From: an uncultured Clostridiaceae bacterium
GTDB lineage: Bacteria > Bacillota > Clostridia > TANB77 > CAG-508
Direction: 5' to 3'
Assembly: GCA_948356915.1 (NCBI GenBank)
Contig: CAOJCG010000012.1
Coordinates: 232 to 64,231 of the forward strand
DNA: 64,000 bases
Both the position numbers and the translations under genes were made by a program. This document shows positions 9,592 through 57,690 of this stretch, one piece after another. Position 1 is the stretch's first letter, and each line of letters starts with the position of its first letter. The notes beneath the pieces were generated by a model. It did not search any database. It saw nothing but the letters and a program-made list of their open reading frames with translations, and was not told the origin of the DNA.

Positions 9592-9593
9592 AA

Positions 9594-12037: not shown

Positions 12038-12706
12038 ATGGAATTACAAATTTTAGAGAATAATATTAATTATACATTTAAAAATAAAGAATTATTAAAA
12101 AATGCGTTAACACATACTTCGTATGCATTTGAAAGAAATACAGCTAGTAATGAAAAGCTAGAATTTTTAGGAGATAGTATATTAGAGTTTATATCTAGCA
12201 AATATTTATATAAAAATTTTCCTAATCTTTCAGAAGGTGAACTTACTAAAGTTAGAGCTACAATTGTATGTGAAGAAAGTTTATATAAAATTGCTAAAAA
12301 ACATAACTTTGATAAATTTATATTTTTAGGTAGAAGTGAAACAGCAGTGCATAAAGAAGTAAGAAAGGCAATTATGGCAGATAGCGTAGAAGCGGTAATT
12401 GCAGCTATATACTTTGACTCTAATTTAGAAGAAGCAGAACGTTTTATTATAGAAAACTTAAAAGAAGAGGCACTAATAGCTAGTAAAAATGTAGGGCAAA
12501 AAGATTATAAAACCGTACTACAAGAAAAATTACAAGCTAATGGAGAAGTACATATAAAATATGAAATTATAAAAGAAGAAGGACCAGACCATAATAAGAA
12601 GTTTACAGCAAGAGTAAGTTGCAATGGTAAAGCACTATCAACAGGAGAAGGAAGAACTAAGAAAGCAGCAGAAATGGAAGCAGCCCGAAAGGCAATGAAC
12701 AAATAA
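12038..12706 (+). CDS. rnc: Ribonuclease III
   Basis: ERLEFLGDS signature plus a dsRBD. 222 aa. Confidence 0.9.
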   Translation: MELQILENNINYTFKNKELLKNALTHTSYAFERNTASNEKLEFLGDSILEFISSKYLYKNFPNLSEGELTKVRATIVCEESLYKIAKKHNFDKFIFLGRSETAVHKEVRKAIMADSVEAVIAAIYFDSNLEEAERFIIENLKEEALIASKNVGQKDYKTVLQEKLQANGEVHIKYEIIKEEGPDHNKKFTARVSCNGKALSTGEGRTKKAAEMEAARKAMNK

Positions 12707-15019: not shown

Positions 15020-16447
15020 ATGCAAAAAACAATGAAAATAATTGGCAAAATAATATCTTTATTAATTACATTAACATTAATATTTATAGCTTATAAAGTA
15101 TATAGTATAAATAATTTTAATGAATATATAAGGGCAGAATATAATAGTGGACTTTCTAATTTTTCAAGAGATACACAAAATAAATATTCAAAAAAGGATA
15201 GCTACAAAATAGAAAATACTGATTATAATGATGCAATGTTTTTTAAAACTATACCAGTTACGCCTAATACTTCATATAAAGTAAGTTGCATGATAAAAAC
15301 TGAAAAGGTAGTAAATAAAGAAGAAAATACAGATGCAGGAGCACATATATGTATAAATGAAACAACAGAAAAATCTGACAATGTAGTAGGAACAACAGAT
15401 TGGAAAAAAATAGAATTTGTATTTAATTCAAAAAATAGAAATGAAGTTCAAGTAGGTTTTAGGCTTGGAGGAAACTTTGATGACTCAAAAGGTACAGCAT
15501 GGTTTTCAGATATAACAATAGAGCAAGGAATAGCAGATAACTCCAACAATTGGAAGTTCTTATGCTTAATATTTGATAAAACAGACGTAAATTTAGAAAT
15601 AAATGGAGGGCTTAAAAACTTTAATTTAACATTATCAAATTCAGATGTAGAAGATATGAAATTATGTATAAACAGATTTAAAAATTCTATGGAACAGATG
15701 TCAAAAGGAAAAATGAAAGTAGAATGTAACATTTTAGAAGTAAAAACACCAATAACATCTATGTCATATGACGACGAAAACGGTTATTTTGTGTCACCAT
15801 ATGATGTAAAAGATGTAATAGACAAATATATACAAACAGGAAAATATGACCATATATTTATAGCATTTAGAACAGGAAATATAAATGCAAAAAATGAAAT
15901 ACCAGTAAATGATTGGATAGGACTTGGAAGTATGGAATATAGAAATATAGGATTTTCAAATATAAGACTTCCAAATAGTGACTCAAATTACATATATAAA
16001 TATGATGAAAGAATAAATACATTCCCAGAAGAAGTATATGTACATGAGTTTTTACATACTCTAGAAAGAAATGCACTAGAATACGGATATGAAAGACCAG
16101 AACTTCACGATAATGAAAAATATGGTTATAAAAGCCAAAGTATAACAGGATTAAAAAAATGGTATGAAGATTACATGAACAAAAATATAAAATCTTCTAT
16201 AAAAGGTTATATAGGACTTCCAGAAGAAATATATACAAAAAAACCATCAAAAAACACAGATTTTGAATATTCAAGAAAATTAGACTATCTTGAAGAACCA
16301 CAAAATATAATAGAAGAATTGAATATATTATTTAAAAGAATAGGAAATTTATTTAATGAAATAAGTAATGGAATACGGAAGGCAGAAGTCAGAAGTCGGA
16401 AGTCAGAACTAGAAGTTATAGTTTATAGGTTAGAGACTAGAAGCTAG
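15020..16447 (+). CDS. Membrane-anchored/secreted hypothetical protein with an HExxH motif
   Basis: N-terminal TM segment and a HEFLH motif. The last ~20 codons (AEVRSRKSELEVIVYRLETRS) are read through the purine-arm repeat, so the true C-terminus is uncertain. Confidence 0.45.
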   Translation: MQKTMKIIGKIISLLITLTLIFIAYKVYSINNFNEYIRAEYNSGLSNFSRDTQNKYSKKDSYKIENTDYNDAMFFKTIPVTPNTSYKVSCMIKTEKVVNKEENTDAGAHICINETTEKSDNVVGTTDWKKIEFVFNSKNRNEVQVGFRLGGNFDDSKGTAWFSDITIEQGIADNSNNWKFLCLIFDKTDVNLEINGGLKNFNLTLSNSDVEDMKLCINRFKNSMEQMSKGKMKVECNILEVKTPITSMSYDDENGYFVSPYDVKDVIDKYIQTGKYDHIFIAFRTGNINAKNEIPVNDWIGLGSMEYRNIGFSNIRLPNSDSNYIYKYDERINTFPEEVYVHEFLHTLERNALEYGYERPELHDNEKYGYKSQSITGLKKWYEDYMNKNIKSSIKGYIGLPEEIYTKKPSKNTDFEYSRKLDYLEEPQNIIEELNILFKRIGNLFNEISNGIRKAEVRSRKSELEVIVYRLETRS

Positions 16448-16605
16448 AAGTCGAAGAAGAGAAGATAGATAGAGAGTATTTTATTATAGTATAGCAAAAA
16501 GCAATTTTAACTTTAGGGAAAAGGGGCTTGTGTCTGCCCGCTCTTCGAAGAAATTACCCTAAAATCTGACCTCTGATATCTGCCTTCTGTCCTCTGTCCA
16601 CAAGA
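16376..16605. repeat. Composite repeat (purine arm, REP hairpin GGGGCTTGTGTCTGCCC, CTTCGAAGAAATTACCC, pyrimidine arm) in the queA leader
   Basis: Arms are ggcagaagtcagaagtcggaagtcagaac and atctgacctctgatatctgccttctgtcctctgtcc. Confidence 0.7.
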
Positions 16606-20472: not shown

Positions 20473-21117
20473 ATGAATCAAATAGAAAAAAAGACAATAA
20501 AAGGAGAGTTAAAGTATAAAAATACAGTAATACTTACATACAAAATAGAATATCCACAAATGATTTCTACTAAATATACATATGGGAAGGAAATATTTAA
20601 TAATTACAATAAAAAAAAGGCAATTGACTTAGAAAAATATATAAAAACAGATTTATATGAAAATGCCAAAGAAGTATATGAATATAATAAGGCAAATGGC
20701 TATCCTATTATGGTATTCGAAGTAATATCAGAATATCATATAACTTATAATGAAGGATTTATTGTAAGCTTATATCAAGATGAATACCAATTTACAGGAG
20801 GAGCACATGGAAGTACAATAAGAACTTCTCAAAACTGGAATTTAAAAGAGGCAAGTACTATACCACTAACATACTTTTTTCCTAATAACCCATATTATAC
20901 AATAGACATATTAAAAGAAATAAATAGTCAAATAAAAACGCAAATAGAAGAAGGGAAAAACCAATATTTTGAAAACTATTGTGAACTAGTATTAGAAACA
21001 TTTAATTTAAGCAACTATTATATAATGCCAAATCAAATAGCAATATATTTTCAACAATACGATATAGCACCATACTCAAGTGGAATACCAGTATTTTTAA
21101 TCAGGACCGCACACTAG
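20473..21117 (+). CDS. DUF3298/DUF4163 (RsiV-like) domain protein
   Basis: FTGGAHG motif. The last codons (IRTAH) and the stop lie inside a REP copy. Confidence 0.6.
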   Translation: MNQIEKKTIKGELKYKNTVILTYKIEYPQMISTKYTYGKEIFNNYNKKKAIDLEKYIKTDLYENAKEVYEYNKANGYPIMVFEVISEYHITYNEGFIVSLYQDEYQFTGGAHGSTIRTSQNWNLKEASTIPLTYFFPNNPYYTIDILKEINSQIKTQIEEGKNQYFENYCELVLETFNLSNYYIMPNQIAIYFQQYDIAPYSSGIPVFLIRTAH

Positions 21118-21166
21118 GGACGGTCCTTTTCGTTCCGAAATCGGAACGCTGGGGACACTCCTTAAG
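21103..21166 (+). repeat. REP copy (TAGGGACGGTCCTTTTCGTTCCGAAATCGGAACGCTGGGGACACTCCTTAAG)
   Basis: Same sequence as the REPs flanking the RAYT at 23444 and 24428. Confidence 0.8.
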
Positions 21167-22742: not shown

Positions 22743-23444
22743 ATGTCATATATAGAATTTAGAAATGTTAATAAAGAATATAAAATGGGAGAAGTAACAA
22801 TAAAGGCCTTAGACGATACAAGCTTTAGTATAGAAAAAGGAGAGCTAGTAGTTATAGTAGGTCCAAGTGGAGCAGGAAAAACCACAACACTAAACATATT
22901 AGGTGGAATGGACAGTGTAACATTAGGTGAAGTAATAGTAGATGGAAAACAAGTAAATAAATTAAACAACAAAGAGTTAATAAAATACAGAAGAGAAGAC
23001 ATAGGCTTCATATTCCAATTCTACAACTTAGTACAAAACCTAACAGCTCTAGAAAATGTAGAACTAGCAACTCAAATATGTAAAGACTCATTAGACCCAG
23101 AAACAATAATAGAAAAAGTAGGTTTAAAAGAAAGAAAAGGAAACTTCCCATCACAACTATCAGGAGGAGAGCAACAAAGAGTGGCAATAGCAAGAGCAAT
23201 AGCAAAAAATCCAAAGCTACTATTATGTGATGAACCAACAGGAGCACTAGACTACAAAACAGGAAAACAAATACTAAAACTTTTGCAAGATACATCAAGA
23301 AAAGAAAAAATGACAGTAATAATAATAACACACAACACAGCACTAGCGCCAATGGCCGACAAAGTAATACACTTCAAAAATGGAAAAGCAGAAAAAATAG
23401 AAACAAATGAAAAACCAACATCAATAGAAGAAATAGAATGGTAG
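22743..23444 (+). CDS. ABC transporter ATP-binding protein (MacB/FtsE-like)
   Basis: Walker [10 protein letters not shown], signature LSGGEQQR and Walker B LLLCDEPT. Confidence 0.9.
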
Positions 23445-24486
23445 CGTGTTAGGGACGCACGTTAGGGACGGTCCTTTTCGTTCCAAAATCGGAACGCTAG
23501 GGACACTCCTTAAACTAAATAATGGGGAATTATGGTTTATTGAGATTGGATTAAAAGATATAATAGGGGAAATTATATTTTAAACTAAAAACAAAAATTA
23601 AATAGGGGCTTAAAATAATAAAAGAAAGAAGGTAATATTATGCCCCGAATGGCAAGAAAAAGTTTAGAAAAAGGTTTTATGCATATAATGGCTCAAGGAA
23701 TAAAAAAAGAAAAAATATTCTACAAAGATGACTATAAAGAAAAATATATTAAATTAATAAAGTTTTTTAAAGAAAAGCAAAAAGTAGAAATTATTAATTA
23801 TTGTGTAATGAATAATCATGTTCACATTATTATATACACTGAAGATATAGATGAATTAACAATATTTATGAGAAAGTTAAATACAACATATGCTTTACAT
23901 TATAATAAATCAGAAAATAGAGTAGGCTATGTATTTAGAAATAGATTTGAAAGTAAAGAAATATATAATCAAGATTACCTAACAAAATGTATAAAATATG
24001 TACATATGAATCCAGTAAAAGCAGGAATTACGAAAACAGAAGGAGAATATAAATATTCAAGTTATAATGACTATATAAACAAAAAAGGAATTATAACAGA
24101 TGAATTATTACAAAAAATATTTAATTCAAAATATAATTATTTAAAGGAATTCTTAAAGATAGAATATGACGAAGAATTATTCGAAGAACTAGAAAAAGAA
24201 GAACTTACAAATGAAAAGCTAAAAGAACAAATAGAACAATTTATAAAAAAAGAACAAGTAACCTTAGGAGAATTAAAAAACGATAAAAGATTAATAAAAA
24301 AACTATATAATACAATGAAGTTAAAACCAACAAAAGCGAAATTAGGAGAATGTATAGGACTAAGTAGAACAAGAATAAGTAAGATATTAAATGATTATAA
24401 AGAAAATAAAAAATAAGGAGTAAGCAAAGGAGTGTCCCCAGCGTTCCGAATTCGGAACGAAAAGGACCGTCCCTAGCGTGCGGAAG
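23444..24486 (+). mobile_element. REPtron: REP, RAYT gene, inverted REP
   Basis: REP at 23444-23512 (+) and its reverse complement at 24428-24486 flank a Y1/HUH transposase. The unit sits between the ATPase and permease genes of one ABC transporter. Confidence 0.8.
23640..24416 (+). CDS. REP-associated tyrosine transposase (RAYT, IS200/IS605-like Y1 HUH)
   Basis: HUH motif NNHVHIIIY and catalytic Tyr region YVFRNRF...KYVHMNPVKAGI. 258 aa, intact. Confidence 0.8.
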   Translation: MPRMARKSLEKGFMHIMAQGIKKEKIFYKDDYKEKYIKLIKFFKEKQKVEIINYCVMNNHVHIIIYTEDIDELTIFMRKLNTTYALHYNKSENRVGYVFRNRFESKEIYNQDYLTKCIKYVHMNPVKAGITKTEGEYKYSSYNDYINKKGIITDELLQKIFNSKYNYLKEFLKIEYDEELFEELEKEELTNEKLKEQIEQFIKKEQVTLGELKNDKRLIKKLYNTMKLKPTKAKLGECIGLSRTRISKILNDYKENKK

Positions 24487-24492
24487 ACGAAA

Positions 24493-27400
24493 ATGAAAAA
24501 AGCGTTATTGAAAGATAGTTTAAAAGAAATTAGAAATACATATAAAAGGTTTACTTCCATTTTATTAATGGCTTTTTTAGGTGTGGGCTTTTTTGCGGGA
24601 ATGAGGGCTGCAAGCCCTGATATGATATCTACTATTGATAATTATTTTGACAGTCAAAATGTATATGATATACAAATTCTTTCTACTTTGGGTTTAACAA
24701 ATGATGATACCCAGGCTTTAGAACAGGTTGAAGGCGTAAAAAAAGCTTATGGAGAATATAGTGAGGATGTTCTAATTAATTATGAAGATACTGAAATTGT
24801 AACTAAAGTATTATCAATAGATGATATAAATAGGGTAGCACTAATAGAAGGAAGAATGCCTCAAAGTAAAAATGAGTGCTTAGTTGAAAAAGCATTTTGT
24901 AATAGAACAGGAAAGAAAATAGGAGATAGCCTTACTATTGAAGAAACAAATGACAGTATAATAAAAGAAAAAGAGGTTACTATTGTAGGAACAATGAATA
25001 GTCCACTATATGTTTCAAGACAAAGAGATACTTCAAAGTTAGGTTCTGGAATGGTAAGCCATAATATGTATTTACCAAAGGAAAGCTTTGATTCGGAAGT
25101 ATATACTGGTATATATGTTGAACTAGTAAATTCTAAGCAAATGGTAGCTAATTCACAAGAATATAACGATTATGTACAAGAAGTGACTACAAAAATAGAA
25201 GAAATAAAAGCACAAAGAGAAAATGCAAGATATGATGAAGTGAAAGCCACCGCACAAGAAAGGCTAGAAGAAGGAGAGACAAAATTACAAGAAGAAAAGG
25301 TTTCAGCTAATAATAAACTAAAAGAAGCAGAAAATGAAATTATAGAAGGAGAAAGAAAATTAAATACTGCTGAAATTACTTTAAATAATAAAAGTAAGGA
25401 AGCGGAGGAAAAATTTAAGTTAGCAGAAGAAAATATAAAAACAGCTAAGGTTAAAATAAAAGAAGAAGAGGAAAATTTTAAAGTTCAGGAGCAAAATGCT
25501 TTTGCACAAATAGAACTTTTAAATAAACAAAAACAAGAAATAGAAGTTAATTTACAAAGTATAAATACTAATATAGAAGAATTACAAAAAAACTTAAATA
25601 AAATAAATGAAAGTCTTAACAATAATAATTTAACACAAGAAGAAATAGCTAGCCTTCAAGCTCAAAAGGAAAATATAGTAAATACATTAACAAATGTAAA
25701 GGCACAAAAAATACAGTTGGAAGCTGGGCTAGTAAGTATAAATAATGGTTTAGAAGAAATACAAAACGGAATAAAAGAAGGAAAAGAAAAATTAAATTAC
25801 GCTAAAACTACATTAGAAAATAATGAAAAGGAACTAAACAAAACAAAACAGTTAACAACAAAACAATTAGAAAGTGCAAGACAAGAAATAAATACTTCAA
25901 AAAAGCAGTTACAAGAAGGAAGAAAAACTCTTGAAACAAATAAGGCAGAATATGAAGAAAAAATAAAAGAAGCAGAGAAAGAACTATCAGATGCAAAGCA
26001 AAAAATACAAGAAATAGAACATCCAACTTGGTATATATTAGGACGAGATTCAAACCCAGGTTATAGTGGATTTATGCAAGACACAAAAAGTATAGAAAAT
26101 TTAGGAAAAGTATTTCCAATAGTATTTTTTGTTATAGCAACACTTATTTCACTAACTTCTATGACTAGAATGGTAGAAGAGCAAAGAGTGCAAATAGGTA
26201 CAATGAAGGCATTAGGATATAACAAAGCACAAATTGCAAGCAAGTATTTATTATATTCAGGGCTAGCTTGCCTAATTGGTGGAAGTATAGGAATGATAAT
26301 AGGTTTTGAAACACTTCCAAGAATTATATGGATGATGTATAGCATGATGTATGTAATACCAAATTTTGTTGCAAGTTTTAATGTATATTTTGCTATATTA
26401 GGTCTAGGGTTAGCAAGTGTATGTATAATAGGTGCAAGTTTATACACTGTTTTAAAAATAGTAGGAGATACACCAGCCCAACTAATGAGGCCAAAAGCTC
26501 CAAAAGCAGGAAAGAAAATATTATTAGAAAGAATTCCTTTTATATGGAAACATTTAAGTTTTAGCAGAAAAGTAACAGTTCGTAATATTTTCAGATATAA
26601 AAAAAGAGTAATTATGACAATAGTTGGAATTGCAGGAAGTACAGCACTTATACTAACAGGTTTTGGAGTAAAAGACGCAATTTCAGATATTTTAATAAAA
26701 CAATATGAAAATGTGTATAACTACGATATGCAAATTAGTTTGAAAAGTGATTTAGAAGAAACAGGAATAGAGAATTTTGTTAAAACATTAGAAGAAAAAG
26801 AAGAGATTAATAAAATAGCAGAAGCCAATATGACATCTGGAACATTAGTAAATGGAGAAAATGAAGAAGATGTACAAATTATTATAGCAAAAGATGAAAA
26901 AATAAATGAATTAATACATTTATCAGATAGGAAAACAAAAAAGGAACTTAAGTTACAAGAAGGAAAAATAGCTATAACAGATAAAGTGGCAGAATTATTA
27001 GAAGTTAAAAAAGGTGATAGCATAATATTAAAAGATGCAGAAGGAAAAGAAAATAGTGTAATAATTTCAGATATTGTAGAAAATTATATTTATCACTATG
27101 TATATATGCCAAAAAATTTATATGAAGAACTATATGGAGAATATAATACAAATGTATTATTTGCACAAAATAATGTAGAAGATGAGCAAGAGGAAGAACT
27201 TGCAAGTAAGTTTTTAAAAGAACCAAATGTAAATGCAGTATCATTAAGTTCTAACATGGAAAATGTAATGGATGATATGATGAGAAACTTAAATTATGTT
27301 GTAATTATACTAATAGTATCAGCAGGTATGCTAGCATTTGTAGTACTATATAATTTAGCAAATATAAATATTAGTGAAAGAATAAGGGAACTTGCTAGTT

Positions 27401-27690
27401 TAAAAGTACTAGGTTTTTACGATAAAGAAGTTTATGACTATGTAACAAGAGAAACAGCAATATTAACTGCAATAGGAATAATATTTGGACTAATAGGAGG
27501 ATATTTCTTAAGCATATTTATAGTAAAAACATGTGAAATAAATGTTTTAAGGTTTGGTCAAGAAATAAAGCTGCCAAGTTATATATATTCAGTAGCAATA
27601 ACGGTAATATTTACAGTAATAGTAAATATAGTAACATATTTTGCTTTGAAGAAAATTGATATGATTGAGAGTTTGAAAAGTATAGAATAG
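24493..27690 (+). CDS. ABC transporter permease, FtsX/MacB family, with a large coiled-coil extracytoplasmic domain
   Basis: N-terminal TM, about 450 aa of coiled coil, then two FtsX-like 4-TM blocks. ATG at 24493; the track start at 24478 lies inside the REP. Confidence 0.75.
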   Translation: MKKALLKDSLKEIRNTYKRFTSILLMAFLGVGFFAGMRAASPDMISTIDNYFDSQNVYDIQILSTLGLTNDDTQALEQVEGVKKAYGEYSEDVLINYEDTEIVTKVLSIDDINRVALIEGRMPQSKNECLVEKAFCNRTGKKIGDSLTIEETNDSIIKEKEVTIVGTMNSPLYVSRQRDTSKLGSGMVSHNMYLPKESFDSEVYTGIYVELVNSKQMVANSQEYNDYVQEVTTKIEEIKAQRENARYDEVKATAQERLEEGETKLQEEKVSANNKLKEAENEIIEGERKLNTAEITLNNKSKEAEEKFKLAEENIKTAKVKIKEEEENFKVQEQNAFAQIELLNKQKQEIEVNLQSINTNIEELQKNLNKINESLNNNNLTQEEIASLQAQKENIVNTLTNVKAQKIQLEAGLVSINNGLEEIQNGIKEGKEKLNYAKTTLENNEKELNKTKQLTTKQLESARQEINTSKKQLQEGRKTLETNKAEYEEKIKEAEKELSDAKQKIQEIEHPTWYILGRDSNPGYSGFMQDTKSIENLGKVFPIVFFVIATLISLTSMTRMVEEQRVQIGTMKALGYNKAQIASKYLLYSGLACLIGGSIGMIIGFETLPRIIWMMYSMMYVIPNFVASFNVYFAILGLGLASVCIIGASLYTVLKIVGDTPAQLMRPKAPKAGKKILLERIPFIWKHLSFSRKVTVRNIFRYKKRVIMTIVGIAGSTALILTGFGVKDAISDILIKQYENVYNYDMQISLKSDLEETGIENFVKTLEEKEEINKIAEANMTSGTLVNGENEEDVQIIIAKDEKINELIHLSDRKTKKELKLQEGKIAITDKVAELLEVKKGDSIILKDAEGKENSVIISDIVENYIYHYVYMPKNLYEELYGEYNTNVLFAQNNVEDEQEEELASKFLKEPNVNAVSLSSNMENVMDDMMRNLNYVVIILIVSAGMLAFVVLYNLANINISERIRELASLKVLGFYDKEVYDYVTRETAILTAIGIIFGLIGGYFLSIFIVKTCEINVLRFGQEIKLPSYIYSVAITVIFTVIVNIVTYFALKKIDMIESLKSIE

Positions 27691-27741: not shown

Positions 27742-27823
27742 AAGAAAAGGAAAAAATTGATTTGTAGGGATACCATTTGTATGTATACACGTTGTGCTCG
27801 TTTATTATTTTAGATGTAGGGGC

Positions 27824-27860
27824 GATTAGCAATCGCCCGCTCTTCGAAGAAATAGCTTAA
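27824..27860. repeat. REP-like element GTAGGGGCGATTAGCAATCGCCCGCTCTTCGAAGAAAT
   Basis: GTAG 5' motif, 8-bp stem gggcgatt/aatcgccc and CTTCGAAG core. Confidence 0.7.
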
Positions 27861-31771: not shown

Positions 31772-32650
31772 ATGGAGGGTAATATTATGGAAGATAATAA
31801 AAAAAGAAAGTTAAATTTGAAAATAAAAACATTTTCAGATTTAAAAAGATTTAAAAGCCAAAAAGTACACGAGATAGTTGGGAAGATGAGAGAAAGCAAT
31901 AGTAAAATATCTGATGAAGAGTTAAAAACTTTTTCAGGATTAGTAAAATATGCAACAAGGAGAAGTTTGATTAGAAAATCAGATAATAATAGAATTAAAC
32001 AAAATGAAAAGGTAAAAACAAAATATAACGAAGAGAAAAGTATTTTGAAAGAATTATTAGAAAATAAACAAATTACTAAAGAACAATACAACAAACAAAT
32101 GGAAAAATTAATTTATAAAACGAGAAAGAAGATTTATGAAAAAGACTTAAGCAGTGATGTAACTGAAAAACCAAAAAATCCAACAATACAAAGGGCAATT
32201 AAAAATATAGGAAAAGTAGTAAAAACAGTAGGTAAAGGTTTAGCAGTTGCAGTAGCATCACCATTTGTATTAGGTTATAAAATAGCAACAGGAATAGGGA
32301 AAGTAGCAAAGGCAATAGGTAGAGGAACACAAACAGCATATTTAACAGCAGGAAAAGTAGCAGATAATGTAAAAGATCAAGTACAAAATGCAAATGGAGA
32401 AGTAAATAGAGAAATGTACGAAAAAGCTAATGAAAAACAAAAACAAGAAATGATGGAAAGAGCTTATAAGCAAGCAGATAAAGAAAATGCAAAAAGAGAT
32501 AGAGAAGCAGCAAGAAGAGAAAACTTACATATGAATGCAGAGCAACAACCAATAGATCATGAAGAAGCAAAGAAACATACATTTGAAAGAGTAGACGCAG
32601 AACAATTATCACCAGAAGAAATAAAACAAGTTTATGGAGAAGAAAAATAA
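31772..32650 (+). CDS. Hypothetical K/E-rich protein
   Basis: 292-aa ORF with no recognisable domain. Confidence 0.4.
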   Translation: MEGNIMEDNKKRKLNLKIKTFSDLKRFKSQKVHEIVGKMRESNSKISDEELKTFSGLVKYATRRSLIRKSDNNRIKQNEKVKTKYNEEKSILKELLENKQITKEQYNKQMEKLIYKTRKKIYEKDLSSDVTEKPKNPTIQRAIKNIGKVVKTVGKGLAVAVASPFVLGYKIATGIGKVAKAIGRGTQTAYLTAGKVADNVKDQVQNANGEVNREMYEKANEKQKQEMMERAYKQADKENAKRDREAARRENLHMNAEQQPIDHEEAKKHTFERVDAEQLSPEEIKQVYGEEK

Positions 32651-32864
32651 CAAAAAAATATTGACATATAAACATAAAAATGATAAAATAGAACCGTTAT
32701 AGTAGAATGCCAACAAATGGTATTTCCGTAACGGTTTTCTATATTGTAACAATATAAATAATACAAAGAAATGAAAAAGCAAAATAGTGTTACAATAAAT
32801 TATGAAATCAACTAAATATTGTAAAAAAATTACAATAAACAAAAATCAAGGAGGTGAAATTTAA

Positions 32865-33278
32865 GTGCCAACAATTAACCAATTAGTAAGAAAAGGAAGA
32901 CATACACAAAAAACTAAATCAACATCACCAGCTCTACAACATGGTTACAATACAATGAAAAAAAGAGTAACAAATAAAAGAGCACCACAAAAAAGAGGTG
33001 TATGTACAGTAGTTAAAACAGTAACTCCAAAGAAACCAAACTCAGCTTTAAGAAAAGTAGCCAGAGTTAGACTTTCAAACGGTTATGAAGTAACTTCTTA
33101 TATTCCAGGAATAGGTCACAACCTACAAGAGCATAGTGTTGTTCTAATAAGAGGTGGAAGGGTAAAAGACCTACCAGGTGTTCGTTACCACATAATAAGA
33201 GGAACATTAGATACAGCAGGTGTTAAAGACAGAATGCAAGCTAGATCTAAGTATGGAGCAAAAAGACCTAAAAAATAG
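32865..33278 (+). CDS. rpsL: 30S ribosomal protein S12
   Basis: [11 protein letters not shown]...[14 protein letters not shown] start after aaggagg. Confidence 0.95.
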
Positions 33279-33345
33279 AATTTAGGCAGATATTTTAAAT
33301 TATATTAATCTATGAAGATTAATTTAGTGCATATAAGAAGATACT

Positions 33346-33590
33346 AATTGGAAGTTGGAAGTTGGAGGTTAGAAGTTGGAAAAATTAATTCTAACTCTTA
33401 GCCAAAATCTTGAAAACTTAAATTTAGAATATATATTATACGCACTGTACGGGGAGAAAAGACTTTCCGAGTAACTTTAGATATTTTATATAAATATCAA
33501 CAAATCTAGGATGAAAAATGGAATAAGATGTTGTAGAAAACCGATTTAAAAAGGAATTTACGCTTCCAACCTCTAACTTCCAACATCCAA
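33346..33590. repeat. Composite repeat: (GGAAGTTGG)n arm, ~180-nt spacer, CCAACCTCTAACTTCCAACATCC arm in the rpsL-rpsG spacer
   Basis: Arms are ttggaagttggaagttggaggttagaagttgg and gcttccaacctctaacttccaacatccaa. Confidence 0.7.
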
Positions 33591-33611
33591 ACAGAAAAGG
33601 AGTGAAGAATA

Positions 33612-34082
33612 GTGCCAAGAAGAGGATATGTAGCAAAAAGAGAAGTAATAGCAGATCCAATGTACAATAGCAAACTTGTTACAAAATTAATAAACAATGT
33701 TATGCTAGATGGTAAAAAAACAGTTGCTCAAAAAATAGTATATGATGCATTTGACATCATAAAAGAAAAAGAGCAAAAAGACGCTTTAGAAGTATTCGAA
33801 GCAGCTCTTAACAATGTAATGCCAGTTCTTGAAGTAAAAGCAAGAAGAGTTGGTGGAGCAACATACCAAGTACCATTAGAAATAAGACCAGAAAGAAGAC
33901 AAACTTTAGGTTTAAGATGGCTAGTTACTTATGCTAGAAATAGACATGAAAAAACAATGGCTGAAAAATTAGCCGGAGAAATAATGGATGCAATTGCTGG
34001 AAACGGTGGAGCATTCAAAAAGAAAGAAGACATGCACAGAATGGCAGAAGCAAACAAAGCTTTCGCACATTACAAGTGGTAG
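33612..34082 (+). CDS. rpsG: 30S ribosomal protein S7
   Basis: GTG start and PRRG N-terminus. 156 aa. Confidence 0.95.
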
Positions 34083-34410
34083 AATGGAAGTTGGAAGTTG
34101 GAAGTTGGAAGTTGTAAACTTGGGTAATTTCTTTGTAGAATTTATCTTAAAGTATCAACCTCTAACTACTAACATCTAACCTCCTAAATAAAATATAAAA
34201 CAAAGAGTTAGGAAGTTAAATTGAAGTTAGGAGAAAAAATGGATAGGAAGTTTCTTAGAAGAGATTCTCAAAATCCAACCTCCAACTTCCAACTTCCAAC
34301 CTCAAAAAAATAAAAGAGATAGGAATTGGAAAACGAAGTAAGGATGCAAAAGGAAAATCTACAAAGAAATTCCCCGAGCTTTCAACCTCCAACTTCCAAC
34401 CTCTAATTAA
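34083..34410. repeat. Three tandem composite units (34083-34192, 34196-34308, 34310-34410) between rpsG and fusA
   Basis: Each unit has a purine arm (GGAAGTTGG x4), a CTWCRAAGAAATTMCC-like core (revcomp in unit 1) and a pyrimidine arm (CCAACCTCCAACTTCCAAC). Confidence 0.75.
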
Positions 34411-34430
34411 AAAAGGAGGAAAAAGCAAAA

Positions 34431-36512
34431 ATGGCTGGAAGAGAGTTTCCTTTAGAGAGAACAAGAAACATAGGAATCATGGCCCATATAGATGCTGGAA
34501 AAACTACTACTACAGAAAGAATTCTATTCTATACAGGTAGAACTCATAAAATAGGAGAAGTTCACGAAGGTGCGGCAACAATGGACTGGATGGTTCAAGA
34601 GCAAGAAAGAGGTATAACAATTACTTCAGCTGCAACAACATGTAAATGGATGGACAACAGAATAAACATCATAGACACTCCAGGACACGTTGACTTCACA
34701 GTAGAAGTTGAAAGATCTTTAAGAGTACTAGATGGTTCTGTATTAGTTCTAGCAGCAAGAAGTGGTGTACAACCACAATCAGAAACAGTTTGGAGACAAG
34801 CTGATAAATACAAAGTACCAAGAATGGCATATGTAAATAAAATGGATATGACAGGTGCAGATTTCTACGGATGCGTTGAGCAAATGAAAGAAAGATTAAA
34901 TGCAAATGCAGTTCCAATTGAATTACCAATAGGTGCTGAAGACAATTTCCAAGGAATTGTTGACTTAGTAAAAATGAGAGCTTTTATTCATAAAGATGAT
35001 TTAGGAAAAGAAATTGAAGAAACTGACATTCCTGAAGATTTAAAAGAAAAAGCAGAAGAATATAGAGCCGCAATGGTAGAAGCAGCAGCAGAACAAGATG
35101 ATGAATTAATGATGAAATATTTAGACGAAGGAGAATTAACACAAGATGAAATAAGAGCAGGTTTAAGAAAAGGAACAATAGCAAATACAATAGTTCCAGT
35201 AACATGTGGTTCATCATACAAAAACAAAGGTGTACAAGAATTATTAGATTCAATAGTATACTATATGCCATCTCCACTAGATATACCAAATATTAAAGGT
35301 GTAGATGACGCTGGAAATGAAGTAGAAAGAGTAACATCTGATACAGAACCATTCTCAGCATTAGCATTCAAAATAGCAACAGACCCATTTGTTGGAAAAC
35401 TTTGTTTCTTCAGAGTATATTCAGGAACATTAGAATCTGGATCTACAATATTAAATGCAAACAAAGACAAAAAAGACAGAATGGGAAGAATACTATTAAT
35501 GCATGCTAACCATAGAGAAGATATAGACAAAGTATATGCAGGAGATATAGCTGCAGCAGTTGGACTAAAAGAAGTATCTACAGGAGATACACTTTGTGAC
35601 CCAGCTCATCCAGTTATATTAGAATCAATGGAATTCCCAGAGCCAGTTATTGATATAGCTATAGAGCCAAAAGATAAAGCAAACAGTGAAAAAATGAGTA
35701 TAGCTTTAGCAAAATTAGCAGAAGAAGATCCAACATTCAAAACACATACAGACCATGAAACAGGTCAAACAATAATCGCTGGTATGGGTGAGCTTCACCT
35801 AGATATCATCGTAGACAGATTAAAGAGAGAATTTAAAGTTGAATGTACAGTTGGTAAACCACAAGTTTCTTACAAAGAAACAATAAGAAACAAAGTAAAA
35901 GTTCAAGGTAAATTTGCTCGTCAATCAGGTGGACGTGGACAATACGGAGATGTATGGATTGAATTAGAACCATTAGAGCCAGGAACAGGAGTTCAATTCG
36001 AAAGCCAAATCGTTGGTGGATCTGTACCAAAAGAATATGTAAAACCAACAGAAGAAGGTATTAGAGAAGCTGCTGAATCAGGAATTCTAGCTGGATATCC
36101 AGTTATAGACTTCAAAGCAACATTAGTAGATGGTTCATACCACGAAGTTGACTCATCAGAAATGGCATTCAAAATAGCAGGATCTATGGCATTCAAAGAA
36201 GGATGTCGTCAAGCAAAATCAGTACTATTAGAGCCAATAATGAGAGTAGAAGTAACAGTTCCAGAAGAATACATGGGAGATGTTATAGGAGATATAAACT
36301 CAAGACGTGGAAGAATGGAAGGAATGGAAGCACGTAGCGGAAGCCAAATAATTCGTGGATTTATACCACTATCAGAAATGTTTGGATATGCAACAGACTT
36401 ACGTTCAAGAACACAAGGAAGAGGAACATACGCAATGGAACCAAGCCATTACGAAGAAGTTCCAAAATCAGTACTTGAAGCAATAGTAGCATCAAGAGCA
36501 AAGAAAGATTAA
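34431..36512 (+). CDS. fusA: Elongation factor G
   Basis: AHIDAGKTT and DTPGHVDF motifs. 693 aa. Confidence 0.95.
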
Positions 36513-36542
36513 TAAAAATAGAATAGCAAATTAAATTCAATT

Positions 36543-36590
36543 GTAGGGGCGTGGCCTTGTGTCCGCCCTATGCTACAACGAAATTCCTTA
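36543..36590. repeat. REP-like element GTAGGGGCGTGGCCTTGTGTCCGCCC...CGAAATTCC
   Basis: GTAGGGGC plus hairpin. Confidence 0.55.
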
Positions 36591-36702
36591 AATAATAAAC
36601 ATTATTAGGATATGCCTTTGAGGAGGGACAGACACTAGGCATGCCTCTACATCGAATTTAATAACTGTTAAATATAATATTTAAAAATAAGGATGTGATA
36701 AT

Positions 36703-36918
36703 ATGTATGAAAGTATAAAGAAACAAAGGAAAAAATTTATTGAAGGTTTAAAGGCTGATGTTTCTGAATATAAAACAAATATATTATCAGATGAAAAAAC
36801 AAAATCTGCGTTAGATGCAGAAAAAATAAGAAAAGATTGGGAGCAAGTAGGTGCTGATATAAAAAGTAGTATTTCAGTTAGCATTTATGATAAACCAGTT
36901 AAGGACTTAAGTAAGTAA
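36703..36918 (+). CDS. Small hypothetical protein
   Basis: 71-aa ORF between fusA and tuf with weak support. Confidence 0.3.
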   Translation: MYESIKKQRKKFIEGLKADVSEYKTNILSDEKTKSALDAEKIRKDWEQVGADIKSSISVSIYDKPVKDLSK

Positions 36919-37076
36919 TATTCAAAGTGTTACTAAAAGAGGATACGAAAATGAAAAATAATTAAAAACACTTGCATTTTTCTAAAATTTGTTATAAAAT
37001 GCAAGCGTATAAAATTAGTTATTAATTTTAAAAAAATAAAAAATAAATGAAAAGAAAAAAAGGAGGAAAATTTCAA

Positions 37077-38276
37077 ATGGCAAAGGAAAAATTTGAAAGA
37101 ACTAAACCACACGTTAACATCGGTACAATCGGACATGTTGACCATGGTAAAACAACAACAACAGCAGCTATTACTAAATACTTAGGAATGTTAGGAAAAG
37201 CTAAATACGAAGCATATGATGCAATTGATAGTGCACCAGAAGAAAAAGCAAGAGGTATCACAATCAATACAGCACACGTAGAATATGAAACAGATAACAG
37301 ACACTACGCACACGTTGACTGTCCAGGACACGCTGACTACGTTAAAAACATGATTACAGGTGCAGCACAAATGGATGGTGCTATACTAGTTGTTTCAGCA
37401 GCAGATGGCCCAATGCCTCAAACAAGAGAGCACATCTTACTTGCAAGACAAGTTGGTGTTAAATTTATCGTAGTTTACCTAAACAAATGCGATATGGTTG
37501 ATGACCCAGAATTATTAGAATTAGTAGAAATGGAAGTAAGAGACTTATTAAGCGAATATGGTTTCCCAGGAGACGAAATTCCAATTATAAAAGGATCTTC
37601 ATTAAACGTTCTAGAATCAACATCAACAGATCCAAATGCACCAGAATATGCATGTATGAAAGAATTAATGGAAGCAGTTGATAGCTACATCCCAACACCA
37701 GAAAGACCAATCGACCAACCATTCTTAATGCCAGTAGAAGACGTATTCACAATTACAGGACGTGGAACAGTTGCAACTGGTAGAGTAGAAAGAGGAGTTG
37801 TTAAAGTACAAGACGAAGTTGAAATAGTTGGTATCAAACCAGTTAACAAGAGTGTTGTTACAGGTGTTGAAATGTTCAGAAAACTATTAGACCAAGCAGA
37901 AGCTGGAGACAACATAGGTGTATTATTAAGAGGTATTGATAGAAAAGACATCGAAAGAGGTCAAGTTCTAGCAAAACCAGGAACAATACATCCACACACA
38001 AAATTCACATCACAAGTATACGTTCTAACAAAAGAAGAAGGTGGACGTCATACACCATTCTTCGATGGATATAGACCACAATTCTATTTCAGAACAACAG
38101 ACGTTACAGGTGTTATCAAATTACCTGCTGGAACAGAAATGGTTATGCCAGGAGATAACGTAGATATGGAAATCGAATTAATCACTCCAATTGCTATCGA
38201 AAAAGGACTAAGATTCGCTATCCGTGAAGGTGGTAGAACAGTAGGTTCAGGTGTCGTAGCTGAAATTAAAGAGTAA
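37077..38276 (+). CDS. tuf: Elongation factor Tu
   Basis: [30 protein letters not shown] at 37077 follows RBS aaaggagga. Confidence 0.95.
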
Positions 38277-42000: not shown

Positions 42001-42410
42001 TGTATATTGGTGAAAGAGGTAATAAACATAGTGTAAGTAAGCATTCAAATATATCAAAAGCACTCTTAAATCTTATTTCAAAGGTAACACAAAACTATGC
42101 GCAAGAAGAAAGAGTAGTAGAAGCTTTCATAAATAAATTATATAAAACAGCATAGAAATAAAAAAGTTGATAGATTACTAATTAGTAGTTTATCAGCTTT
42201 TTTATTATGGACAATGGAACAATGTTTTATCACTAGGATTTCAGAATTAAATTTAGATAAGTAGAAAATCAAATGGTAGACAAGAGTAGTAAACAAACCA
42301 CCTTCCCATTGTCACTATTTTGAAATAATTAACTAGAAACCTTGATTTTTAAGCCTATATGTAATATAATTTCAAATAATGTTATAGGAAATAATAGGAG
42401 GAAAATAAAA

Positions 42411-44171
42411 ATGGAAAAGAAAAATTTAAAAGATTTATATATAAATTTCTTTGTAGAAAATGCACATGTTCAAATACCATCAGCGCCAGTTGTGCCAGAA
42501 AATGACCCAAGTGTACTATTTAATACAGCAGGAATGCAACCATTAGTGCCATATTTAATGGGGCAAAAACATCCACTAGGAACACGTCTTTGCGACTATC
42601 AAAAATGTATAAGAACAAATGACTTAGAAGAAATAGGAGATAAAACACACCACACATTTTTTGAAATGCTAGGAAACTGGAGTTTAGGAGATTACTTCAA
42701 AAAAGAATCTATTACATGGAGTTTTGAATTTTTAACAAAAGTATTAAACATACCAGTTGAAAAACTAGCAGTAACAGTATTCGAAGGAAATAATGAAGTT
42801 CCAAGAGATGAAGAATCAGCAAATGTATGGAAAAGTTTAGGCATTCCAGCAGAAAGAATAAGTTACTTAGATAAAGACAATAACTTCTGGATAGCAGGAG
42901 AAGTAGGTCCATGTGGACCAGATACAGAAATATTTTACTGGAGAAGCGAAGACGAAGTCCCACAAAAACACGACCCAGAAGATGAAAGATGGGTAGAAAT
43001 ATGGAACAATGTATTTATGCAATATGAAAGACATAAAGATGGAACAGTAACAGAACTTCCACATAAAAATGTAGATACAGGAATGGGAGTAGAAAGAACA
43101 GTAGCAATACTAGAGGGAGTAGATGACAACTACTTAACATCAATATGGGAAGATGTAGTAGGGAAAATAGAAGAAATGTCAAATACAACATATGTAGAAA
43201 ACGCAAAAAGTATAAGAATAATAGCAGACCATATACGTACAGCAGTATTTATTGCAGGAGATAACTCAGGAATAAAGCCATCAAACACAGACCAAGGCTA
43301 TATATTAAGAAGATTAATAAGAAGAATGATACGCCATGCTAAAAAAATAGGAATAGATTTAGAAAGTGGTTTTGAAAGAACTTTAGCATTAATGATAATA
43401 GAAAAATATGCAAAATATTATGATGAACTAGAAAAAAATAAAGAAGTAATATTAGATGTTTTAACAAATGAATTAAAGAAATTTAACAGAACTCTAGAAA
43501 AAGGTTTAAGAGAATTTGAAAAAATAGTATCAAATTTAGAAGGAACTACATTAAACAAAGATTTAGCATTCAAACTATATGACACATACGGTTTCCCACT
43601 AGAGCTAACAGTAGAACTAGCAGAAGAAAAAGGAATAACAGTAGATAAAGTTGGTTTCGAACAAAAATTTAAAGAACACCAAGAAAAATCAAGAGCAGGT
43701 TCAGAGCAAAGGTTTAAAGGAGGTCTCGCAGGAGATGGCGAAATAGAAACAAAATATCATACAGCAACACACCTTTTAAATGCAGCACTAAAACAAATAA
43801 TAAGTAAAGATGTACATCAAAGAGGTTCAAATATAACAGTAGAAAGAATGAGATTTGACTTCAACTGTGACCACAAATTAACAGATGAAGAAAAACAAAA
43901 AGTAGAAGACCTAGTAAATGAATGGATAAAACAAGAAATACCAGTAACAGTAGAAGAAATGAGCAAACAAGAAGCAATAGAATCAGGAGCAGAGTGTATG
44001 TTTATAGAGAAATATCCAAATATTGTTACAGTATATAGTATAGGGGATATATCAAAAGAACTATGCGGAGGTCCACATGTACAAAATACAAAAGAGCTAG
44101 GACACTTTAAAATAAAAAAAGAAGAAGCAAGTTCAGCAGGAGTAAGGAGAATTAAAGCAATATTGGAGTAG
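42411..44171 (+). CDS. alaS: Compact alanine--tRNA ligase-like protein lacking the editing-domain beta-barrel and the C-Ala domain
   Basis: Class II AlaRS catalytic motifs (FNTAGMQ, KCIRTNDLEEIGDKTHHTFFEMLGNWSLGDYF, GPCGPDTEIFY, WNNVFMQYER). A short linker leads directly to editing-core motifs HTATHLL and CGGPH. 586 aa total. Confidence 0.7.
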   Translation: MEKKNLKDLYINFFVENAHVQIPSAPVVPENDPSVLFNTAGMQPLVPYLMGQKHPLGTRLCDYQKCIRTNDLEEIGDKTHHTFFEMLGNWSLGDYFKKESITWSFEFLTKVLNIPVEKLAVTVFEGNNEVPRDEESANVWKSLGIPAERISYLDKDNNFWIAGEVGPCGPDTEIFYWRSEDEVPQKHDPEDERWVEIWNNVFMQYERHKDGTVTELPHKNVDTGMGVERTVAILEGVDDNYLTSIWEDVVGKIEEMSNTTYVENAKSIRIIADHIRTAVFIAGDNSGIKPSNTDQGYILRRLIRRMIRHAKKIGIDLESGFERTLALMIIEKYAKYYDELEKNKEVILDVLTNELKKFNRTLEKGLREFEKIVSNLEGTTLNKDLAFKLYDTYGFPLELTVELAEEKGITVDKVGFEQKFKEHQEKSRAGSEQRFKGGLAGDGEIETKYHTATHLLNAALKQIISKDVHQRGSNITVERMRFDFNCDHKLTDEEKQKVEDLVNEWIKQEIPVTVEEMSKQEAIESGAECMFIEKYPNIVTVYSIGDISKELCGGPHVQNTKELGHFKIKKEEASSAGVRRIKAILE

Positions 44172-50672: not shown

Positions 50673-50679
50673 TAAGGAA

Positions 50680-50766
50680 ACTAGAAATTAGAGAATATAT
50701 AAAAAAACTTCGAGGGATTTGCTAAAAATCCAACATCCAACTTCCAACCTCTAACTTCTACATTCC
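50680..50766. repeat. Partial composite repeat (CTTCGAG core-like segment plus pyrimidine arm TCCAACATCCAACTTCCAACCTCTAACTTC) in the rnhB leader
   Basis: Read directly in the sequence. Confidence 0.6.
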
Positions 50767-50781: not shown

Positions 50782-51409
50782 TTGAAAGAAAAAGAATTAC
50801 AAAGATTAACTGAACTAAAACAAATAGAAGAAAACTTACATTCACAAGGAATAGAATACATATGTGGAATAGATGAAGCAGGGCGTGGTCCACTAGCAGG
50901 GCCAGTAGTAGTTGCAGCAACAATAATGCCAAAAGATTCAATGATAGAAGGAGTTAATGACTCAAAAAAAGTTTCAGAGAAAAAAAGAGAATTACTATAC
51001 GAAAAAATAACTGAAGAAGCAATAGCGTGGGGAGTAGGTATAATAGACCAAAAAGAAATAGATAGAATAAATATACTAAATGCAACAAAAGAAGGACTAA
51101 CTCAAGCACTAAAAGCACTAACTGTAAAGCCAGATAGAATAATAGTAGATGCCCTAAATGGAATAGATACACTTCGGAATACCATACACATCAATAATAA
51201 AGGGAGACGCAAAATGCTATTCAATAGCAGCAGCCTCAATAATAGCAAAAGTAACAAGAGATAGAATAATGCGTCAGTGGGATGAAATATACCCTATGTA
51301 TGGCTTTGAAAAACATAAGGGATATGGAACAAAAGCACACATAGAAGCAATAAAAGAATATGGCTTATGCCCATTACATAGACTAAGCTTTACTAAGAAT
51401 ATAAGATGA
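50782..51409 (+). pseudogene. rnhB: Ribonuclease HII, frameshifted
   Basis: ICGIDEAGRGPLAGPVV is in frame 1. The conserved C-terminal region [31 protein letters not shown]...[14 protein letters not shown]...HRLSF is in the +1 frame, and the shift is near 51172-51178 (cttcgga). Confidence 0.75.
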
Positions 51410-53122: not shown

Positions 53123-53170
53123 TTTCTGACTACTCTACTGTTCACAACTTGCAGCTAAAATATTTCATGT

Positions 53171-53320
53171 TGTAGGGGCTTAATCGGTTAGGAATACCAA
53201 AGAGAACTTATCGGATTACGCCCTCTAAACGTATATTTAAGATTAATACCAATATTAAAATTATCTAAGGGCGAAATTTGGTATTCCCAGAGAGGTATTC
53301 CTTACTGATTTAGCCCCTAC
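53171..53320. repeat. Inverted pair of REP-like elements (GTAGGGGCTTAATCGGTTAGGAATACC ... GGTATTCCTTACTGATTTAGCCCCTAC)
   Basis: BIME-like inverted REP pair. A direct half-copy lies at 57631-57690. Confidence 0.65.
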
Positions 53321-57555: not shown

Positions 57556-57630
57556 AAAGAGAAGAAGAACTCATGTGAGCTCTTCTTTTCTTTCCATTCT
57601 AAGAAAGTATATGATTTAAAGTTAAGAGTG

Positions 57631-57690
57631 TAGGGGCTTAATCGGTTAGGAATACCAGTGAGTATTTACCGAATTACGCCCTCTATTGCG
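57631..57690. repeat. REP-like element GTAGGGGCTTAATCGGTTAGGAATACC...CCGAATTACGCCC
   Basis: Direct copy of the left half of 53171-53320. Confidence 0.65.

Follow-up and report, generated by a model that had tools for sequence, protein, structure and literature searches.

MITE-type repeats (MITE, miniature inverted-repeat transposable element), such as the Correia elements of Neisseria, the pneumococcal BOX and RUP elements and bcr1 of Bacillus cereus, are about 100-150 nt long, carry terminal inverted repeats, reside in operon spacers and fold in the mRNA, where Correia elements are cut by RNase III. They have defined target-site duplications and relatives of the insertion sequence (IS) type, and their arms are not microsatellites. 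Repetitive extragenic palindromes (REPs), including "double-foot" REPs of the form GT[AG]G…C[TC]AC, the REPtron, and REP-associated tyrosine transposases (RAYTs) extended by a helix-turn-helix (HTH) have been defined (PMC6006769), and Clostridia are known to contain RAYT group 1 (PMC5581495). Here we analyzed a stretch of 64,000 nucleotides (the window) of contig CAOJCG010000012.1 from an uncultured Clostridiaceae bacterium, whose str operon carries in two of its spacers five copies of a unit consisting of a core between inverted heptamer arrays. These units are probably a REP-like non-autonomous repeat, resembling bacterial interspersed mosaic elements (BIMEs), with arms of heptanucleotide microsatellite, which is co-transcribed and whose hairpins between stop codon and Shine-Dalgarno (SD) sequence are tolerated by the operon. 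Heptamer hairpins between genes and REPs are each known already; none of the sources consulted on REPs, on short tandemly repeated repetitive (STRR) sequences and on other heptamer repeats describes a REP-derived core with heptamer-array stems.

Heptamer arrays in two str-operon spacers

The rpsL-rpsG and rpsG-fusA spacers both contained the heptamer GGAAGTT/AACTTCC in inverted arrays around a common core. The sequence GGAAGTTGGAAGTTGG was matched 19 times in the window with three mismatches or fewer (0.27 expected), and Tandem Repeats Finder (TRF) reported period-7 arrays at 33348-33381, 34085-34114, 34274-34303 and 34379-34400. A period of 7 with 3.1-6.6 copies was found in every unit, as in heptanucleotide long simple sequence repeats (LSSR) and STRR, which are taken to comprise at least three tandem 7-nt repeats in intergenic DNA. 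The units were built of a purine array (RGARGTY)n, a core and a pyrimidine array (RACNTCY)n, one array in each being clean and its partner degenerate.

Membership of the family was defined by an nhmmer profile of the core plus the clean arm. At the left of the rpsL-rpsG spacer lies the inverted unit U6 (33346-33415, minus strand; nhmmer match 33405-33341, minus strand, E = 2e-10), with a clean purine arm (TTGGAAG x4.9 by TRF, 33348-33381) followed by a decayed core and partner arm (33382-33415). The forward unit U7 (33520-33590, plus strand; nhmmer match 33549-33596) lies at the right and comprises a decayed 5' arm (33520-33540), a core (33541-33562) and a clean pyrimidine arm (33563-33590) that ends 6 nt before the rpsG SD. 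The rpsG-fusA spacer holds three units. Unit A (34085-34188, minus strand, E = 2e-12) is inverted; its clean arm (TGGAAGT x4.3, 34085-34114) begins 2 nt past the rpsG stop codon and is followed by the core (34115-34153) and a degenerate arm (34154-34188). Units B (34205-34303, E = 4e-13) and C (34316-34406, E = 3e-11) are both forward, on the plus strand. B consists of a degenerate 5' arm (34205-34233), a core (34234-34273, ATAGGAAGTTTCTTAGAAGAGATTCTC) and a clean 3' arm (34274-34303), and C of a degenerate 5' arm (34316-34346), a core (34347-34378, …ATCTACAAAGAAATTCCCC) and a 3' arm (34379-34406) ending 6 nt before the fusA SD (34413-34419).

An earlier note on this DNA had described an arm-core-arm repeat here, and alignment bore it out: A, B and C align end to end once A is reverse-complemented, so that the unit boundaries coincide and the region is not simple low-complexity sequence. 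A aligned only as the reverse complement, in keeping with the inverted first core that had been reported for rpsG-fusA. Of the four str-operon copies counted earlier, the three in rpsG-fusA stand, and the "one copy" of the rpsL-rpsG spacer is in fact two units, which brings the total to five; U6 and U7 are separate profile matches, each present or absent independently of the other in other strains, and the leader that they flank is the same in all strains. The arm repeat, given as a 9-mer, has a period of 7 nt (GGAAGTT). The proposal of tandem amplification was not supported. Pairwise identities among A, B and C were 62-63%, and their identities to unit U1 of the nusG-rplK spacer, 26 kb distant, were 54-69%. 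Because A is inverted and the three units are no closer to each other than to U1, they seem to be insertions that are separate or old, or else a mosaic, rather than the products of recent local amplification.

Complementarity of the inverted arms extended over up to 53 nt at 85%, between unit C and the left half of unit A, and over 28 nt at 93%. The RNA of the rpsG-fusA spacer was predicted to fold with -102 kcal/mol (z = -6.6) and that of the rpsL-rpsG spacer with -78 kcal/mol (z = -4.5); no shuffle equalled either value. Folded singly, A, B and C gave -21 to -38 kcal/mol each (-37.9 kcal/mol for A). Their local hairpins total about -88 kcal/mol, and a nested fold, in which the left clean arm of A pairs with the right arm of C, reaches about -101 kcal/mol. 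The fusA SD was unpaired in the predicted spacer fold. Inverted arrays that lie between co-transcribed-type genes and form predicted hairpins are also what the STRR description specifies (PMC2670836, PMC4692102).

The genes concerned are rpsL (32865-33278), rpsG (33612-34082), fusA (34431-36512) and tuf (37047-38276). A near-consensus promoter-like site at 32661-32689 precedes rpsL, and no terminator-like site (GC-rich hairpin plus U-tract) was found on the plus strand from 32600 to 37100, both spacers included; the arms are followed by A-rich sequence, which does not correspond to an intrinsic terminator. Between U6 and U7, outside the repeat, lies the ancestral rpsL-rpsG leader (33416-33519, plus strand). 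It includes a hairpin, CGGGGAG..CTTTCCG (33450-33469), within a block that is invariant in five strain variants; in L004 a G-to-A change in the hairpin keeps the pair. This leader hairpin (33440-33480), which had no Rfam match, is a candidate S7 autoregulatory site.

A dispersed family with REP-like cores

As had been claimed, the element has relatives elsewhere in the window: ten heptamer-armed units were found in seven spacers, namely nusG-rplK, rplA-rplJ, rplJ-rplL, upstream of queA, upstream of rnhB, rpsL-rpsG (two) and rpsG-fusA (three). All seven spacers lie between co-directional genes, and all units are intergenic except for an overlap with the 3' end of a gene at U4. Of the ten translation-operon spacers five hold units, compared with two of the 48 other spacers (Fisher p = 0.001). 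The five units outside the str operon are all on the plus strand. U1 (7409-7534, nusG-rplK; nhmmer E = 2e-17) has an (AGAAGTT)n arm, the core GGTAAATTCTTCGAAGAAATTAC and a (TCCGACW)n arm, and its predicted fold is -42.9 kcal/mol (z = -8.4). U2 (8926-9062) sits between the L10 leader and the rplJ SD and retains a full REP-like unit in its core (GTAGGGACGAC..GTCGTCCGCACTTCGAAGAAACTAC); the leader itself was matched below threshold (8795-8930, 37.4 bits, gathering score 44), beside U2 and not inside it. U3 (9593-9862, rplJ-rplL) encloses ancestral spacer sequence between a purine arm at its left (9593-9628) and a forward unit whose clean 3' arm lies at 9829-9862. U4 (16376-16598), upstream of queA, retains a GC hairpin and CTTCGAAGAAATTACCC, and its 5' arm overlaps the 3' end of the open reading frame (ORF) 15020-16447. 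In U5 (50676-50765), upstream of rnhB, the 5' arm is decayed and the 3' arm, (TCCAACW)n, is clean and ends 2 nt before the SD. The ORF at U4, which has a weak, sub-threshold match to a carbohydrate-binding domain, runs about 70 nt into the 5' arm (16376-16447), and its last ~24 residues (…RKAEVRSRKSELEVIVYRLETRS) are encoded by the repeat.

Copies at different loci had in common a non-heptamer core of about 20 nt, roughly TTCTTCGAAGAAATTACYYAAAA. The heptamer variants follow the same order, TCCGACW-TCCGACA-TCTGACY-TCCGAY, in U1, U2 and U3, whose arms are 84-91% identical. The common core and the same variant order indicate copies of a defined sequence rather than independent microsatellites. 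Arm subfamilies go by neighbourhood, with TCCGAC-type arms in the rplKAJL cluster and TCCAAC-type arms in the str operon. With lengths of 90-140 nt, inverted arms of 28-50 nt, no coding content and ten copies, the units agree with MITEs in size, terminal repeats and copy number. In Rfam 15 nothing in the entire window matched at gathering thresholds, and permissive thresholds gave only chance-level matches to miRNA precursors on the units; literature matches to the exact arm sequences were only chance, primer-like ones.

The core is a shortened REP-like unit: it has a GTAGGG foot, in some copies a GC hairpin, and CTTCGAAG, a mini-palindrome with AAATTAC after it. It aligned with the tails of solo REP-like units, here called R1 (GTAGGGGC hairpin, CCCGC, CTTCGAAGAAAT), at 4146, 27817 and 36544. 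The R1 layout is TTGTAGGGGCG, a loop, CGCCCGC and TCTTCGAAGAAAT, and solo units of the type TGTAGGGGCG-loop-CGCCCGC-CTTCGAAGAAAT without heptamer arms occur at 4134-4180, 4325-4342 (minus strand), 27814-27860 and 36541-36592; the last of these (TTGTAGGGGCG…GCCC…, plus strand) directly follows the fusA stop codon. The GC hairpin is kept in U2 and U4 and missing in U1, A, B and C, where the TAGGG foot is degenerate. A 5' GT[AG]G foot as defined in PMC6006769 was present in the solo R1 units and in the U2 core, and U2 has a "double foot" GTAG…CTAC (GTAGGGACGAC…GTCGTCC…CTAC). TAGGGRC heads numbered 19 against 4.2 expected, 16 on the plus strand and three on the minus strand. A third GTAG-headed repeat type (TGTAGGGGCTTAATCGGTTAGGAATACC…CGCCCT) was seen at 53170-53240, 53250-53320 (minus strand), 57628-57700 and 9634-9690, and the inner part of the rplJ-rplL spacer, conserved also in the more distant lineage L093, consists of sequence related to it.

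A gene for a RAYT-like Y1 (HUH) transposase of 258 aa is located at 23640-24416 on the plus strand, between genes for an ABC-transporter ATPase (22743-23444) and an FtsX permease (24478-27690). Its product carries the motifs HVH and YVHMNPVKAG, ends in an HTH-like tail, matches Pfam PF01797 with E = 7.6e-10, and scores 71.8 bits with the NCBIfam model REP_Tyr_transpos (NF047646) versus 19.7 with the IS200 model. The gene is flanked by REPIN-like repeats, here called R2 (TAGGGACGGTCC…GGAACGCTAGGGAC), at 23456-23511 (plus strand) and 24427-24482 (minus strand), which form inverted arms of 56 nt that are 93% complementary. As judged from the sequence, the gene with its inverted flanks is the REPtron layout of PMC6006769. 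A third R2 copy was noted at ~21115-21165. The R2 sequence TAGGGAC…GGAAC resembles elements in the rpsG-fusA spacer of conspecific strains. Within the 64-kb window there was no parent IS with the same terminal repeats. An IS200 in L093 was considered as the mobiliser and rejected, as it has an ordinary IS200 end with unrelated hairpins.

The heptamer units are oriented 8:2 in favour of the plus strand, and the unit next to the downstream SD was forward in all seven spacers (p = 0.008). In six of the seven, 2-10 nt separate the end of the 3' arm from the SD, and in three (nusG, rplJ and rpsG) the 5' arm starts 1-7 nt past the stop codon. In all three multi-part spacers the outermost arms are clean and the inner arms decayed. 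Base composition is 27-29% GC across the window, nearly all genes are on the plus strand, and GC skew is positive throughout. Positive GC skew marks the plus strand as the lagging-strand template by standard inference. The lagging-strand template is the substrate of Y1 transposases (PMC6006769), and the strand bias thus fits a Y1 single-strand mechanism.

Heptamer hairpins of four unrelated motifs were also seen in metagenome (L098-L217) and viral (L223 onward) contigs. Among the matches listed, the purine- or G-rich arm came first in 61 and second in 10, a bias independent of the strand read. Several of these hairpins span exactly the distance from a stop codon to the next start, and one (L109) lies between two tRNA genes. 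Sense folding was better than antisense folding in eight metagenome hairpins and worse in four, a mixed result. A scan of metagenomes for TCYRACN x4 showed, among the matches listed, the same architecture in very different genomes, which had suggested a universally recognised heptamer motif; the idea was dropped because three scrambled heptamers turned up in viral contigs about equally often, with 92, at least 120 and at least 120 stretches.

Strain variation and genomic surroundings

Nine contigs (L001-L009) encode an RpsG identical to that of the window and are ~98% identical to it in rpsL, rpsG and fusA, and yet their spacers differ completely. The variation in copy content between strains that the earlier note had thought worth checking was thus confirmed. 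The rpsG-fusA spacer of the nine contigs is 152, 243 or 358 nt long; none of them has heptamer arrays there, and the triple occurs in 0/9. The conspecific spacers instead hold GGGGAC…GTCCCC hairpins, and two contigs add a 55-codon ORF. Variants of the rpsL-rpsG spacer had both arms, the left arm only plus foreign elements, or no left arm. U6 is present in seven contigs (L001/2/3/5/7/8/9) and absent from L004 and L006, whereas U7 has been replaced by other elements in L002 and L009, is decayed in L004, and has five units in its 3' arm in L001 and L008 versus four in the window. Strain differences were mostly whole-element gain, loss or replacement rather than 7-nt steps. In nusG-rplK, six strains keep only an 11-bp mini-hairpin, and the window and L093 have the full element; both arms of U3 are absent from L093. 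Between the window and L093, the U1 3' arm shows four parallel A/G differences next to a nearly unchanged 5' arm, which we read as gene conversion between nearby copies.

Outside the window, full-length units were confined to conspecific strains and a single close lineage (L093), and 1.2 Mb around rpsG from 80 related species had no full-length units or arrays near rpsG. The length of the rpsG-fusA spacer, which had been called unusual, is ordinary among relatives: lengths in 76 related species run from 14 to 475 nt (median 134 nt), with 42/76 above 100 nt. Most of these long spacers are occupied by other palindromic elements, among them a tandem triple of a different family in L071. A long spacer full of hairpins is thus typical of the clade, though perhaps not of model Firmicutes. 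A clade-wide palindromic element of ~120 nt with the ends AATTTTT…AAAAATT and the core TTCGACGTACCAnCGTACGCCTTC starts at the rpsG stop codon in L029, L033, L034, L037, L057, L070, L071, L080, L081 and L085, in one, two (L080) or three (L071) tandem copies. A GC-rich element of ~70 nt (CCCGGCGCGGGAAATATCTTGTCCGTAAAGGAATACCTAGGGGGAAGATGTGTCCCCGTCAGAAAC), which could represent a further mobile hairpin or else a structured RNA, recurs across species in the rpsG-fusA and rpsL-rpsG spacers of L001-L009 and in the rpsG-fusA spacers of L078 and L083. For queA and rnhB, exact-protein look-ups gave the same strain only, and the exact EF-G protein had no record.

The nearest relatives of the window are uncultured "Clostridia bacterium" metagenome-assembled genomes from animal gut, including Clostridium sp. 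CAG:492, CAG:343 and CAG:245. The rplL-rpsL interval (10244-32864), where many Firmicutes have rpoB and rpoC, lacks both genes; its 22 kb hold plsX, rnc, radical-SAM genes, queA-tgt, an ABC transporter, the RAYT gene, rpiA, a GIDA-family gene and others. Downstream, the fusA-tuf interval is 534 nt in the window versus 82 nt in L001 and L005, and includes a 71-codon ORF (36703-36918) that had no Pfam match and is called as a gene in conspecific contigs too. The rnhB ORF (50782-51264) has a low-complexity C-terminal tail, suggesting a frameshift or truncation, and the alanyl-tRNA synthetase ORF (42342-44171) looks short at 609 aa.

Interpretation and comparison with described systems

We propose that the units are non-autonomous DNA that multiplies and is replaced over time, most likely because the RAYT-type Y1 transposase of 23640-24416 cuts and joins them as single strands. 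Slippage during replication, in steps of 7 nt, and gene conversion among neighbouring copies would add further change. Lying within transcription units, the repeats would be copied into the operon mRNA and fold there, where each unit could form its own hairpin; the outermost clean arms may also pair across the whole spacer, which would loop out the insert and leave the SD single-stranded. With the insert looped out and the SD unpaired, an essential operon could tolerate the units. Side effects are likely, such as altered segmental mRNA stability or RNase III processing, both of which are plausible. REPs of E. coli reportedly impede termination (Liang, Rudd and Deutscher, 2015), and hairpins 1-7 nt past the stop codons of nusG, rplJ and rpsG could impede it too.

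Several observations weigh against this account. The census covers 64 kb of the genome. The five str-operon units bear only degenerate foot remnants (ATAGGA, AAAGGA and TAAGA), and in them a single REP-derived core with heptamer arrays on both sides takes the place of the two inverted REPs of the REPIN architecture. The score of the RAYT-like protein is under the NCBIfam cut-off of 80 bits, and a PDB sequence search with this protein gave no match. The R2 repeats beside its gene differ from the heptamer units, with only the TAGGGRC head in common; since R2 is a different subfamily, both a cognate link and mobilisation by the RAYT are only putative. The flanks are AT-rich, and neither a target-site duplication nor a clean empty site was definable by comparison with strains without arms. 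Enrichment in translation operons and regular placement of the 3' arm before the SD both fit function as well as tolerance. For most forward units of the window the antisense strand folds better than the mRNA strand, which neither supports nor excludes a role as RNA.

Function could mean that the host has selected an intercistronic RNA device, in which a spacer-spanning stem of SD-like purine and anti-SD-like pyrimidine repeats directs RNase III, protects segments of the mRNA or links translation of the downstream gene to termination of the upstream gene, and so tunes the stoichiometry of ribosomal proteins and EF-G. An RNase III gene, rnc, is encoded at 12038-12706; transcript stability or translational coupling has been proposed for the cyanobacterial STRR (PMC2670836); and the preference for translation operons, the upkeep of the outermost clean arms in the three multi-part spacers and the distances of the arms from SD and stop codon would all be expected of such a device. 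The same stop-hairpin-start geometry recurs in unrelated metagenome contigs, for example at gap-pgk in L124, but this geometry is trivial if the element fills a short spacer. Conspecific strains that lack the arms, or have unrelated elements in their place, argue against selection, as do the 5' arm without partner in L002 and L009, the missing triple in all nine contigs, the lack of arrays near rpsG in the 80 related species and the lack of a consistent excess of G-U over A-C mismatches on the sense strand. We regard selection by the host as unlikely. Quite unlikely is the broader proposal that hairpins with a purine (SD-like) 5' arm and a pyrimidine (anti-SD-like) 3' arm that span from a stop codon to the next start are a widespread selected device for ribosome hand-over or coupling, or for RNase III punctuation. 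If it were true, the str-operon units would be its Clostridial version on a REP scaffold, and the purine-arm-first bias would reflect function, not a mutational quirk.

The arrays might also have arisen in situ as independent microsatellites, by slippage in each spacer and template switching to a palindrome, with no transposition and no tie to REPs or RAYTs. A core of ~20 nt common to copies at different loci and to solo REP-like units, the same variant series in U1, U2 and U3, and the inverted copies make this distinctly improbable, even though in many bacteria heptamer arrays outnumber every other kind of long simple repeat (Mrazek 2007, cited by PMC4679880 and PMC4692102), scrambled heptamers are about as frequent in viral contigs, many metagenome examples among the matches listed have pure heptamer arms without a common core, and the 3' arm of L001 has five units to the four of the window. 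It is still less probable that the arrays serve to bind a heptamer-reading protein (an RNA or DNA regulator) or the ribosomal anti-SD, with arm pairing as a secondary feature. GGAGGTT and GGAAGTT resemble an SD and AACCTCC an anti-SD, S1, Csp or CsrA has been proposed for TAACTGA repeats upstream of start codons (PMC4679880), and a heptamer-binding factor has been proposed in Nostoc (bioRxiv 10.1101/2022.06.06.494920); the subfamily heptamers, however, differ (AGAAGTT, CAGAAGT, GGAAGTT), many being poor SD mimics, the motif is no commoner than scrambled controls, and strain variability is high. That the units are an assembly artefact or plain low-complexity sequence is hardly credible. The source seems to be a metagenome-type assembly, in which repeats can mis-join, but the units differ by ~37% from each other, which leaves no identical repeats to be collapsed or expanded; other family members are reproduced exactly in independent assemblies of this strain (L218-L222, 99.97% overall identity), and orthologous units exist in other strains.

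The REP-like reading links REP/BIME-RAYT elements with the unexplained excess of intergenic heptanucleotide microsatellites (STRR/LSSR), and does so in uncultured low-GC gut Clostridia, where neither class has been characterised. If RAYT-type enzymes or hairpin-templated slippage make heptamer stems, a mechanism would be at hand for the cyanobacterial and Xanthomonas hairpins. Spacers of core operons (rpsL-rpsG-fusA and rplKAJL) that are hypervariable between 98%-identical strains can serve as strain markers and are a trap for assembly and binning, and their hairpins could alter the stoichiometry of highly expressed translation genes.

Compared with Correia, BOX and bcr1 elements, the present units differ in that no duplication or IS partner was found and their arms are microsatellites. 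The TAACTGA repeats of Beggiatoaceae and cyanobacteria (PMC4679880) are likewise heptamer arrays a few nt upstream of start codons, including those of ribosomal-protein operons, with a suspected post-transcriptional role; they are direct repeats (one inverted case) with no SD nearby and no hairpin. Closer are the GGGAATC repeats of Xanthomonas (PMC4692102), of which a genome has ~185 arrays, ~90% intergenic and mostly between co-oriented genes, typically with ~4 units; 70-75 inverted pairs can form stem-loops, and the arrays are not conserved between sister species. Unlike the present units, they are G-rich and discussed as G-quadruplex formers, no common core is described for them, and no concentration in ribosomal operons is reported. 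The cyanobacterial STRR (hupS-hupL, PMC2670836; Mazel 1990, as summarized in PMC4692102) agree in their inverted 7-bp arrays, in stem-loops within intercistronic spacers, in strain variation and in the proposed stability or coupling function. They have other heptamers (such as GGGGAYT/CCCCAGT) and belong to another phylum, and no REP-like core or RAYT link is reported for them in PMC2670836 or in the account given by PMC4692102. From the REP/BIME/REPIN-RAYT systems of Enterobacteria and Pseudomonas (PMC6006769, PMC3116915), the units differ in having heptamer arrays as stems instead of two inverted REPs, in the absence of a recognisable GTAG foot from the str-operon copies, in a RAYT flank of a different subfamily and in their low-GC uncultured gut Clostridial host. 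They resemble these systems in being short non-coding palindromes dispersed in mostly intra-operon spacers, with a GTAG-type foot beside the hairpin in the parental R1 units and a double foot in U2, in mosaic clusters with both orientations, species-specific sequence, strain-level presence or absence and strand bias, and in a RAYT-like gene with inverted flanks that occurs once in the 64 kb.

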